Shown piece by piece: positions 3,526 to 5,476 of a stretch of DNA of 5,737 nucleotides (positions are counted from its first letter, which is position 1; every line of letters starts with the position of its first letter). The position numbers and the translations under genes were made by a program. Source of the DNA: a virus (taxonomy: Duplodnaviria; Heunggongvirae; Uroviricota; Caudoviricetes); the IMG/VR virus record IMGVR_UViG_2667527770_000006, positions 1 to 5,737 of that record; one strand, 5' to 3'. The notes under the pieces are model-generated. The model did not search any database, had not been told where the DNA came from, and saw nothing but the letters and a program-made list of their open reading frames with translations.

Positions 3526-3720
3526 TTAGCTACTGGATCCGTCACCTCTCGGGGTCGCAGAAACATTCCCTCCCGATATAGTTACGTAGTTTCCGGAGAT
3601 GATTAACTCCCTGATATTTTTTTCAGTTTCACTATCAACTTCAACACAGTCTGCTGGCATCACAGATACATCGTGCTTGTCACCGACAAAAAAACCCTGC
3701 ATGGTTGGACTAAAATACAT
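3526..3720 (-). CDS. Tail fibre assembly (Tfa) chaperone-like ORF, short (64 aa), probably a truncated N-terminal remnant
   Basis: MYFSPTMQGFFVGDKHDVSVMPADCVEVDSE matches my recollection of the N-terminal pattern of enterobacterial prophage Tfa proteins (M.YFS...GFY...PADAVEV.DE). It lies immediately downstream of the tail fibre gene, with a 1-nt gap. It is far shorter than typical Tfa proteins (130-200 aa) and lacks the conserved C-terminal part. Confidence 0.5.
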   Translation of the reverse strand: MYFSPTMQGFFVGDKHDVSVMPADCVEVDSETEKNIRELIISGNYVTISGGNVSATPRGDGSSS

Positions 3721-3721
3721 A

Positions 3722-4606
3722 TCAATACCCCTCGGACGTAAAGTGAATTACCGGCACATAAGTTGTGTCTTTCGAAATAACCTCTACCACAAATTGTGTT
3801 GTAGATACCCCTTCGGCTGAATTCACGGTCCGGTTACAATTGGCCCAATAACCAAACTCTGGACCTTGTTTATCAAATGTTCGCCCCGCTAACGTGACCG
3901 CCGTCGAAATATGCGCTGTTGGATAGGCTCTTGGGAGCGTCACGGTATAAAAGCGCGTGTAGTAATCGACTCCACCTAAAGTTTGTTTGTTATAGGTAGA
4001 AACCTCCGCAAGAGTGACGATGCCGTACTGATGAATATGCCCGTTCGGCAGAATATACCAGCCTGAAGAAGCTGTATCAGACGCGGAGAAGCTGGACATA
4101 TCGGGGATCTGATCATTACCCGTGCCGACATCCCTTTTCGCCGCTTCTCCCAAACCAAGGTATGTGAGAATGTCAGCAATAGTATTTTTCCCAATAATGT
4201 CACGGCCAACAGAAGTTAAATCAGTCTGCGCTGCTGTATCATTTCCAGTGAAATATGGGAGTTTATTTGCACCTGTTGCGAGCCCAGCTAATGCCGACAG
4301 CGTGGCATCAAGCGCCTGGAAATCTTTCCCGAAAGCGGTCCCCATTTTGGATATAAACCCGTTCAGGTCTCCATCATCAAGCACATCCAGCCCGCTTTTG
4401 TTGGCGGTGTACTGCGCCAACGCTGCCGCGATAAAGCTGGCTTGCCGAATAGCTTTGTTGACCTGTGCGCTGGATGCTTTACCTGCCGTAAACCCTGAAA
4501 GCAGAGCCGGAAGTGCTTCCCAGTCAGCTTGTGAGGTGACGTTAGCGTTCGGATCAAGCGCGAAAGGTTTAAAGTTGTTTATTGCCATTAGAGTATTGTC
4601 CCCCAT
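3722..4606 (-). CDS. Phage tail fibre protein (receptor-binding), 294 aa
   Basis: Long ORF rich in Gly/Ser/Thr/Ala/Asn, placed between a baseplate-type gene and the Tfa-like gene. GGAG lies just upstream of the ATG at 4606. The alternative start at 4588 (MAINNF...) overlaps the upstream stop as TAATG. Assignment is by synteny and composition, not a recognised motif. Confidence 0.55.
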   Translation of the reverse strand: MGDNTLMAINNFKPFALDPNANVTSQADWEALPALLSGFTAGKASSAQVNKAIRQASFIAAALAQYTANKSGLDVLDDGDLNGFISKMGTAFGKDFQALDATLSALAGLATGANKLPYFTGNDTAAQTDLTSVGRDIIGKNTIADILTYLGLGEAAKRDVGTGNDQIPDMSSFSASDTASSGWYILPNGHIHQYGIVTLAEVSTYNKQTLGGVDYYTRFYTVTLPRAYPTAHISTAVTLAGRTFDKQGPEFGYWANCNRTVNSAEGVSTTQFVVEVISKDTTYVPVIHFTSEGY

Positions 4607-5268
4607 GCTCCAACATCGAACCCGCCGATGTATTCGTTATCCATATCAAACCCAAAGAATTTAGAGCCTTCTGACGGTGTTTCTACCGAAGGCGTTTCAA
4701 CATCACCGGCCCATACGCCAGCTGATTTAACGGTGAGATAGCCCTGTTTGATAGCGGCGATCAGTTCGAGAGACACATCAGAAATATCAGTTTCAGGGAA
4801 AACCCAGACCGAAATCGTCATGTCCTGGTTGTCGACGATCTGCATCCTCAGGCCTGAGCCTGCGGTAGCAGCGTCAAGGATGGGAGGCAGAGAGTCGTTC
4901 CGACCGTCCCAGTTGTTGATAGCGATTTTCGCTTTCAGAATGATGCGGTACGTCTCATCGCTTAGCGTCGTATAGCCAGAATCAGGATCATATGGCCCTT
5001 GCCAGATGCCCTGGTCATACCCAAGCCCGTCAGTGTCCCAGCTGAAATAAACTCCGCTAATTGGCTGGCTGACTATGCGACTGCGTCCGATCCACAGACC
5101 GAGGATGTCGAGCTGTACACCGACAGCAGTATCGATATCGAAGGCTGTTATAAGCCCTGACATAGTGCTGGACACATCAATCAGCGGGCGGGTGCTCAGA
5201 TCTATATGGTCAAAAAAGAGTGGCTTGGTAGCGTGGTAGTTAGTGATCAGTTCGGTGTATTTGCTCAT
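4588..5268 (-). CDS. Phage tail/baseplate protein (position equivalent to Mu gp48 / P2 gpI upstream of the tail fibre gene), 226 aa
   Basis: Intact ORF whose start overlaps the stop of the upstream fragment (ATGA at 5265-5268) and whose stop overlaps the start region of the tail fibre gene, consistent with a coupled tail operon. Function is inferred from gene order. Confidence 0.55.
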   Translation of the reverse strand: MSKYTELITNYHATKPLFFDHIDLSTRPLIDVSSTMSGLITAFDIDTAVGVQLDILGLWIGRSRIVSQPISGVYFSWDTDGLGYDQGIWQGPYDPDSGYTTLSDETYRIILKAKIAINNWDGRNDSLPPILDAATAGSGLRMQIVDNQDMTISVWVFPETDISDVSLELIAAIKQGYLTVKSAGVWAGDVETPSVETPSEGSKFFGFDMDNEYIGGFDVGAWGTIL

Positions 5269-5476
5269 GAGGTCACCGTGATACTGATATTCGCGGTGCT
5301 ACAGGACGCTGAAGCATCATAGGCAATATCAATGTTTGATGCCGATACGCTGCCAGACGACTTACCGATCAGCAGGTCGGTAATATCGTAATAGCGGGCA
5401 TTCCCGCCGCTCACAACGCCGAGGTTTGCCGGGGAATAAATACGGCTCAGCAGAACGTCGTCGCCAATTGTTAGGC
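5265..5476 (-). pseudogene. 3' fragment of a phage tail/baseplate gene truncated by the IS1 insertion
   Basis: I hand-translated the minus strand and found an open frame across the whole 209 nt up to the IS1 boundary (...RLTIGDDVLLSRIYSPANLGVVSGGNARYYDITDLLIGKSSGSVSASNIDIAYDASASCSTANISITVTS-stop), ending in TGA at 5265-5267 that overlaps the next ATG. There is no start codon; the 5' part is replaced by IS1. Confidence 0.5.

Follow-up and report, generated by a model that had tools for sequence, protein, structure and literature searches.

Results

Genes and features of the locus

We analysed a 5,737-nt stretch of DNA, positions 1 to 5,737 of the IMG/VR virus record IMGVR_UViG_2667527770_000006 (the window, below), concentrating on the prophage tail genes at 3526-5476 and on an adjoining two-gene cassette whose products are homologues of the Salmonella enzymes STM0725 and STM0726. 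The window is Escherichia coli DNA: it matches strains PK8277 and PK8217 at 99.8% over 1-5382, and draft or complete assemblies match it over its full length at 99.9% (L008, L010, L012 and L013; L numbers denote compared loci throughout). Between the window's two IS1 ends lie the cassette, on the plus strand (316-3106), and the tail block, on the minus strand (3526-5476). The initial annotation, made from the sequence alone, had described an AT-rich cassette converging on a small open reading frame (ORF) at the end of the tail genes, and this description holds, the GC content being 0.28-0.37 in the cassette versus 0.43-0.55 in the tail genes on the opposite strand.

The left end of the window (1-148, minus strand) is the end of a divergent IS1 copy, with its left inverted repeat at 126-148 as located by an inverted-repeat search. 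This IS1 lies at the identical junction in every cassette-bearing locus examined, and is annotated as an 'IS1 family transposase' in L001, L003, L004 and L005. The right end (5477-5737, minus strand) is canonical IS1, comprising the right inverted repeat (5477-5499) and the C-terminal part of InsB (Pfam DDE_Tnp_IS1, E 1.2e-44). The two copies have the same orientation, i.e. they are direct repeats. In PK8277, both the IS1 insertion point (5382/5383) and its orientation differ from those in the window.

The tail block starts with the 3' end of a gene for baseplate J/gp47 (5265-5476, minus strand; 69 codons plus the stop codon; phrog_6, E 5.6e-5), which is interrupted at 5476/5477 by the right inverted repeat of IS1, starting at 5477. 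It continues with an intact gene for a 226-aa baseplate wedge protein of the DUF2612/Phage_Wedge1 family (4588-5268, minus strand; Pfam E 5.9e-46; phrog_587, E 2.7e-74), a gene for a 288-aa tail fibre (3722-4588, minus strand; phrog_11303, E 4e-81) and a gene for a 64-aa protein (3526-3720, minus strand). The J and wedge genes overlap by 4 nt, the wedge and fibre genes overlap by 1 nt, and the fibre stop codon is 1 nt from the start of the 64-aa gene. Gene order and tight junctions are thus as initially annotated, and homology searches with the three larger tail ORFs (phrog_6; Pfam DUF2612 and phrog_587; phrog_11303) identify all of them as phage tail proteins. The module had also been called decayed, which is right in so far as IS1 has truncated it. 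The junction between J and IS1 had no match in the genome contigs searched. The J fragment is identical at 69 of 69 residues to the C-terminus of a 399-aa protein in the intact prophage YZ22PE67 (L002), and the wedge protein at 226 of 226 residues to its counterpart there; hence, the module is truncated rather than eroded by point mutation. The same fibre end and cassette are found on a full tail module in L015 and L009, with genes for sheath, tube, tape measure, Dit-like protein, Pam3_gp18, E217_GP41, sheath initiator, baseplate J and wedge. By these Pfam names the module is of the Pam3/E217-like simple-baseplate myovirus type, neither Mu-like nor P2-like. The tail remnant itself is ordinary.

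The fibre consists of a constant shaft (codons 1 to ~150) followed by a gp53-like receptor-binding tip, which has a weak match to Gp53-like_C in Pfam. A 294-aa ORF starting at 4606 is the mechanical maximum for this gene; we place the start at the ATG at 4588, giving 288 aa, because the phrog_11303 match covers residues 7-159 of the longer ORF. Compared with the fibre of L002, the protein is identical for 150 residues, up to the sequence LGLGEAAK, and diverges completely after it. At the other end of the operon, a hairpin followed by a T-run (GCCCTTCGgtaataCGACGGGC TTTTTTT; 3493-3521, plus strand) abuts the stop codon of the 64-aa gene. We read this hairpin from the sequence; a consensus terminator scan missed it because its stem has one mismatch. 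The same hairpin lies 3' of the 64-aa gene in Klebsiella DNA that has no cassette, within a 43-nt stretch shared with L018/L019, and it follows a gene for a 156-aa Tfa in strain MIN9. A spacer of 386 bp with ~40-46% GC (3107-3492) separates the hairpin from the cassette. No gene or RNA family was recognisable in it, and its 118-aa ORF has no Pfam or PADLOC match. In BLAST against all loci, the part of the spacer at 3107-3461 accompanies the cassette in every context.

The gene after the fibre belongs to a family of short proteins

The 64-aa gene, starting 1 nt past the fibre stop codon, resembles a gene for a Tfa chaperone in adjoining the fibre gene and in varying together with the tip. The first ~55 residues of its product align with the N-termini of Tfa proteins, with which it shares an N-terminal motif; the conserved C-terminal region of Tfa is missing. 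The initial annotation had taken the ORF for a Tfa-like stub that keeps the N-terminal signature only, and the homologues contradict this. Within the assembly collection, 360 blocks contain exactly this protein. Relatives of the fibre tip at 91, 68, 61 and 48% identity directly precede short ORFs of 64, 59, 59 and 77 aa, respectively, whose products are 100, 49, 42 and 35% identical to the 64-aa protein in whole-length alignments and terminate at most 5 residues from its end. The short ORFs stand in independent phage contexts, namely in Klebsiella (L019), in a Mu-like module (L020), in a phage with lysis genes after it (L021) and in an intact invertible segment (L022), each time without the cassette. 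In L021, the short ORF ends the tail operon; in L022, the other orientation of the invertible segment carries an ordinary 146-aa Caudo_TAP protein. In both loci the short ORF is a normal gene, the finding that the initial annotation had named as refuting its reading. When 1.84 billion representatives were searched exhaustively with phmmer, nine clusters were retrieved, all aligned from residue 1 and 48-81 aa long, and no long Tfa parent of the 64-aa protein. We conclude that the gene in the window is complete, and that it belongs to a family of short partners of fibre tips.

The AlphaFold (AF2) model of the 64-aa protein is a compact beta-beta-alpha-beta-beta fold with a predicted local distance difference test score (pLDDT) of 88.8. 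None of 12 members of the short family matches Caudo_TAP in Pfam, and Tfa's C-terminal alpha-helical trimerisation domain was not found in the family by Pfam, by alignment or from homologue lengths. Tfa chaperones have been described as two-part proteins, with a variable fibre-binding domain at the N-terminus and a conserved helical domain for trimerisation at the C-terminus (PMC9608196); of these, the short family would match no more than the first. Judging from its position and covariation, the 64-aa protein is most likely a tip-specific assembly or capping partner, a 'mini-Tfa'.

Residues 13-52 of the protein (window 3568-3684) also resemble a ~38-aa tandem repeat of long fibre-like proteins, of which one (P0123) has seven such repeats (library E 5.8e-13) and another (P0133) ends in a Peptidase_S74 chaperone domain. 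The likeness misses the invariant residues of the short family, and may be due to chance or to convergence.

The cassette encodes homologues of the Salmonella T1 ribofuranose enzymes

The leader of the cassette (243-271, plus strand), 45 nt upstream of the first cassette gene, matches a JUMPstart hairpin and ops element in sequence and structure, a hairpin being followed by GGCGGTAG, at a sub-gathering score of 22.6 bits. The ops element (GGCGGTAGCGT) is at 261-271, and its pattern occurs once in the window, versus 0.03 expected occurrences. The first gene (316-1161, plus strand) encodes a 281-aa GT-A-fold protein with an FLDDDD motif (Pfam Glycos_transf_2, E 7e-6), homologous to STM0725. It overlaps the start of the second gene (1148-3106, plus strand), which encodes a 652-aa dual-domain ribofuranosyltransferase homologous to STM0726, in which a HAD phosphoribose phosphatase domain precedes a glycan phosphoribosyltransferase domain.

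Annotated as a HAD hydrolase, the transferase does have HAD matches, and its AF2 model (pLDDT 90.8) aligns over its full length in Foldseek with 8A0C/8A0M, the Haemophilus type b capsule multienzyme Bcs3, and with 7SHG, a polysaccharide ribofuranosyltransferase of Thermobacillus composti (E 1e-23 to 1e-24). Its catalytic aspartate, D17, is nearly invariant across homologues, and fusions to GT2, Capsule_synth or RgpF domains occur among other members of the family. The closest parallel is a Salmonella locus (L026) that contains glf, glycosyltransferase genes, an ABC transporter, a gene for a GlfT2-like protein, a GT-A gene and a transferase gene, which is the content of the published T1-antigen cluster. 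The cassette transferase is 70% identical to the product of the last gene before nei in this locus, and the cassette GT-A protein shares 54% identity, in a full-length alignment of 278 aa, with the product of the gene preceding it, the DXD motif being kept (FLDDDD in the cassette aligns with FMDDDD in L026). The homologous pair closes the Salmonella T1 locus in the same gene order. We reached that locus through a homologue of the transferase (P0140); a search with the GT-A protein returned only a 37%-identical fragment in a Brachyspira metagenome-assembled genome. By synteny and by the numbering of the catalytic aspartate (D14 there, D17 in the cassette), the L026 pair would be STM0725 and STM0726. 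STM0726 transfers ribose-5-phosphate from phosphoribosyl pyrophosphate (PRPP) and then dephosphorylates the product, and STM0725, to which no catalytic role has been assigned, forms a complex with STM0726 and is required to polymerise beta-1,2-ribofuranan (PMC11294581). That study does not mention prophage or E. coli copies.

PADLOC found no defence-system match in the window. Taken together with the homology to STM0725 and STM0726, the putative JUMPstart/ops leader and the domain fusions in the transferase family, this null result points to a surface-glycan module, and by analogy the cassette probably modifies a surface glycan. Receptor modification, which the initial annotation had suggested as a function, is thus backed by both the leader and the enzymes, whereas for the anti-phage role independent of lipopolysaccharide (LPS) that it had left as a possibility no evidence was found. 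Superinfection exclusion, which it had expected from receptor modification, would be a possible consequence. In E. coli ET846 (L023 3327-6985), the GT-A gene is interrupted by an insert that is flanked by IS1 and IS5 and carries a phosphoethanolamine transferase gene.

An orphan crossover site at the boundary of fibre shaft and tip

At the boundary between fibre shaft and tip lies a 26-bp crossover site (TTCTCCCAAACC-AA-GGTATGTGAGAA; 4145-4170) for invertases of the Din family (Pin/Gin/Cin/Hin-type). In L002 and L022, this site is one arm of the inverted repeat that bounds an invertible segment of 1.5-1.85 kb, with the order tip, partner, inverted Tfa, inverted tip, second site and Hin/Pin-like serine invertase. 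The site in the window is an orphan: no second crossover site was found in the window even with three mismatches allowed, and tblastn detected no remnant there of a second tip (Sv'), a second Tfa (U'), an invertase (pin) or a Tfa C-terminus. The initial annotation had likewise seen no invertase or second fibre set after the fibre. With a single site, no alternative tip or Tfa and no invertase, the fibre is fixed. A second, IS1-damaged invertible segment is found in Escherichia phage phi458 (OP434518; L006 4001-4616), in which the fibre gene is followed by a 74-aa homologue of the 64-aa gene and, beyond that, by an inverted 136-aa fibre tip, IS1 and a truncated Pin invertase.

The crossover site is also where the homology of the window to L007, L009, L011, L014 and L016 ends. 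The break, at 4161, is within a few bases of the site's central dinucleotide. From 4161 leftwards, the tip, 64-aa gene, spacer and cassette are 99-100% identical in loci with three different shafts: that of the 288-aa fibre described here, that of a 257-aa fibre of the same prophage family (L009, L011 and L014) and that of a 241-aa fibre on a Mu-like module with gp45, gp46, baseplate J and Mu gp48 (L007 and L016).

The prophages L011 and L014 occupy a different chromosomal site, the one at which the intact L022 is found. Of the transferase gene they retain no more than the final 119 nt (window 2988-3106), together with spacer, 64-aa gene and tip, and 72 nt further on comes an invertase gene. 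The junction in L014 (~10725-10760) reads TTCTTTTAAAGG-TA-CGTTTATGAAAA. Its outer half (CGTTTATGAAAA) recurs unchanged as the outer half of pixR, the second (invertase-side) site of L022 and L002, and its inner half is transferase-gene sequence that is half-site-like at 7 of 12 positions. A serine-invertase crossover at a quasi-site (window 2975-3000) would produce such a junction. Either the cassette was once located between the 64-aa gene and the invertase-side site and was then mostly deleted, or a segment was exchanged between two prophages at two sites. In L011 (10720-10745), the left junction is as in L014, the right half has diverged and the invertase is a different allele.

PK8277 has a gene for a 189-aa resolvase-family recombinase between its right-hand IS1A and a yecE remnant (L001 18581-19150). 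We considered it as the missing invertase and rejected it, since the DNA upstream has no crossover site and its N-terminus is unlike those of Pin-like invertases. Beyond the left IS1 in the same strain, at the yecE site, is a 68-aa fragment (L001 10780-10986) with a presumed likeness to the C-terminal end of S24/LexA-type phage repressors; after it comes another fragment, the 5' end of yecE.

Position and distribution of the cassette

At an identity of at least 99.5%, the cassette is present in 8 of 5,426 complete E. coli genomes, always on the chromosome, and no record in the phage record collection carries the transferase. In every locus examined it adjoins prophage tail genes and is convergent to the last of them. 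This includes intact prophages of two tail types (L009, L015, L016, L004, L005 and L003), in which the cassette is at least 99% identical. Being rare and yet nearly identical across several contexts, the cassette appears to have spread recently.

The boundaries of homology in these loci indicate where the cassette sits. In YD786, WCHEC050613 and ET846, homology to the window ends at 3461, and an exact 46-nt thrW attachment (att) core follows 10 nt further on; the order in YD786 is dusA, integrase, IS1, GT-A gene, transferase gene, thrW core, Tfa and fibre. In MIN9, the DNA shared with the window reaches 3531, taking in the hairpin as well as the two final codons of the 156-aa Tfa. With its boundaries at 3461 and 3531 in other tail operons, the cassette lies just past the terminal hairpin of whichever operon accompanies it, and leaves the last gene undamaged. 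The initial annotation had pointed to the region downstream of the fibre as a cargo site. Intact prophages of two tail types bear this out, carrying the cassette just beyond their tail operon. The 46-nt thrW core is the one common to SfI, SfII, SfV, SfX, P22 and DLP12, in which the conversion genes always adjoin attP-int (PMC3636060). The window itself has lost integrase gene and att site. Between the cassette flank and the Tfa gene, the thrW core is found at 12090-12135 in L004, at 11471-11516 in L005 and at 9641-9686 in L023; it looks like the scar of an earlier attP, the prophages concerned now being located at dusA or yecE.

The unit bounded by the two IS1 copies occurs in at least two further chromosomal contexts: near pga/csg in L008 and in an Ag43/YeeP island in L010, L012 and L013. 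L008 and L010 have the right flank of the unit in common and differ in the left flank, and no matching 9-bp target duplications were found around the unit in L008 or L010-L013. The shared right flank without a shared left one and the absence of target duplications are better explained by IS1-mediated deletion or rearrangement than by composite transposition. On one side of the unit, L008 (7477-14385) has an extra 60-bp duplicate of the IS1 end, as do L010, L012 and L013.

Discussion

We propose, and think it probable, that the window preserves the end of a prophage tail operon that was severed by IS1, with a complete 64-aa gene after the fibre and a ribofuranose cassette beyond. A Pam3/E217-like myovirus prophage of E. 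coli would have left the 3' part of its tail operon, still intact, at 3526-5476, an IS1 insertion and a deletion inside baseplate J having cut it off from the remaining prophage. The fibre tip would be a swappable module that begins at the Din-type crossover site, and the 64-aa 'mini-Tfa' would provide the fibre-proximal motif of a Tfa without the trimerising helices. The cassette would be an operon with an RfaH-type JUMPstart/ops leader, placed where temperate phages carry their lysogenic-conversion genes. If the Salmonella T1 antigen is a guide, the enzyme pair would use cytoplasmic PRPP to add beta-ribofuranose to a lipid-linked LPS glycan, possibly as a beta-1,2 oligomer or polymer, and would thereby change the surface antigen; this might plausibly block the adsorption of phages that use the modified glycan. 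Recombination at the crossover site would have carried tip, 64-aa gene and cassette jointly from one tail module to another, unrelated one, and an invertase may have left its mark at both junctions, i.e. at the break at 4161 and at the quasi-site junction inside the transferase gene in L014.

Several observations weigh against parts of this proposal. The similarity of the 64-aa family to Tfa N-termini is weak (hhalign E 4e-4, probability 34%, 30 columns), and the 64-aa model has no fold match to TfaMu (5YVQ) or Pam3 gp25 (7YPX); because of this weak relationship and the lack of a structural match, we can only infer a chaperone role. The breaks at the crossover site could instead reflect homologous recombination in the conserved LGLGEAAK-coding stretch. 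The JUMPstart match (Rfam RF01707; E 0.005 in a local search), at 22.6 bits, is below the gathering score of 35, and a promoter scan called no sigma-70 promoter between the IS1 end and the ops element. Moreover, the cassette has none of glf, the Galf transferases and polymer, and the ABC transporter of the T1 locus. Lastly, the original left boundary of the cassette is hidden because IS1 is at the left edge of all cassette-bearing loci.

The initial annotation implied a different history, in which the cassette inserted into the fibre/Tfa region, reduced a Tfa to the 64-aa stub and replaced the second fibre set and invertase. L002 and L022 indeed have an inverted Tfa and tip, a second site and an invertase where the window has the cassette, and the window retains one crossover site only; the fusion of the last 119 nt of the transferase gene to the second site beside the invertase, in L011 and L014, implies that the cassette lineage once adjoined such a site, and the initial 30-55 residues of the 64-aa ORF do resemble Tfa N-termini. 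Nonetheless, this ORF is full length when compared with all its homologues, ending within 5 residues of them, is found without the cassette in L019, L020, L021 and L022, and has no long parent among 1.84 billion representatives; the hairpin after its stop codon is conserved in Klebsiella without the cassette, and neither a Tfa C-terminus nor a second tip or invertase has left a remnant in the window. We consider the insertion history unlikely, its stub part being contradicted already.

We give still less credence to the possibility that the cassette is carried by a 5.3-kb IS1 composite transposon, in which the tail genes would be accidental passengers and their position would be uninformative on phage biology. 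The whole window, with both IS1 copies, does recur at 99.9% identity in at least two other chromosomal contexts, and IS1 borders the left edge of each copy of the cassette. However, there are no 9-bp target duplications, and L008 and L010 share only the right flank, which better fits IS1-mediated rearrangement; in addition, the cassette with the left IS1 only is found beside complete tail modules of two types (L009, L015, L016, L004 and L005). An intracellular anti-phage defence independent of surface glycans is highly improbable. Its position in a hotspot for prophage cargo would suit such a function, and nothing further does: PADLOC returned no match, both proteins are homologous over their full length to polysaccharide enzymes of defined biochemistry (PMC11294581), and a JUMPstart/ops leader typifies surface-polysaccharide operons.

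Our preferred explanation, a severed tail operon with a complete 64-aa gene and a surface-glycan cassette, leaves room for a broader speculation: that tip, ~60-aa partner and cassette together form a portable 'bind receptor, then mask' module that Din-type invertases move between unrelated myovirus tail operons at crossover sites and quasi-sites. We regard this as doubtful. If true, E. coli would have a means, not described before, of spreading a new kind of seroconversion that is cytoplasmic and PRPP-dependent. Three aspects of the locus go beyond routine annotation: the identity of the cassette, the short partner family and the invertase-marked junctions. A prophage-borne pair of T1-type ribofuranose polymerase proteins would be a mechanism of seroconversion unlike gtr or oac, and would give a direct handle on the role of the poorly understood STM0725-type accessory protein. 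The ~60-aa proteins that consistently partner one class of fibre tip represent an uncharacterised family, so short ORFs after fibre genes should not be dismissed as Tfa fragments. The junctions, in turn, may offer a concrete example of host-range sites serving as exchange points for tips and cargo between phage lineages.

Comparison with known systems

The gene downstream of the fibre invites comparison with the Tfa chaperones (TfaMu; Pam3 gp25; Pfam Caudo_TAP). Like theirs, it directly follows the fibre gene and co-varies with the tip, and its product has the N-terminal motif MYFS..T.GFY...P.D..E. Unlike them, the protein has ~60 aa, is without the C-terminal helical trimerisation domain (PMC9608196), matches neither Caudo_TAP nor the folds of 5YVQ and 7YPX, and belongs to a short-protein family of its own. 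The fibre gene itself is split at a 26-bp site into constant shaft and variable tip, as in the invertible segments of Mu (G/Gin), P1 (C/Cin) and e14 (P/Pin), and the site is an arm of the inverted repeat in the relatives L002 and L022, which carry a serine invertase. In contrast to those segments, the window has a single site and lacks both an invertase and any alternative tip or Tfa, and the ribofuranose cassette occupies the DNA where the second set would lie.

The closest counterpart of the cassette is the Salmonella T1 pair STM0725 and STM0726 (PMC11294581), likewise two adjacent genes in the same order, with products 54% and 70% identical over their full length. The transferase has the fold of STM0726, 7SHG and Haemophilus influenzae type b Bcs3 (8A0C), and the DXD motif and phosphatase aspartate are conserved in the cassette. 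Unlike the T1 locus, the cassette stands alone on E. coli prophages, and it has a putative JUMPstart/ops leader instead of a FimB-type promoter switch.

In position, the cassette resembles the serotype-converting cargo of Shigella and Salmonella phages (gtrABC and oac): it adjoins the late operon's end, converges on the tail genes and is placed between them and the integrase, and in three relatives its flank is 10 nt from an identical 46-nt thrW att core. It differs from that cargo in its enzymes. There are no gtr or acyltransferase genes in the cassette, and both its proteins belong to soluble, cytoplasmic, PRPP-dependent families, unlike the periplasm-acting Gtr set or an acyltransferase; the sugar they are predicted to add is ribofuranose, rather than glucose or an acetyl group.

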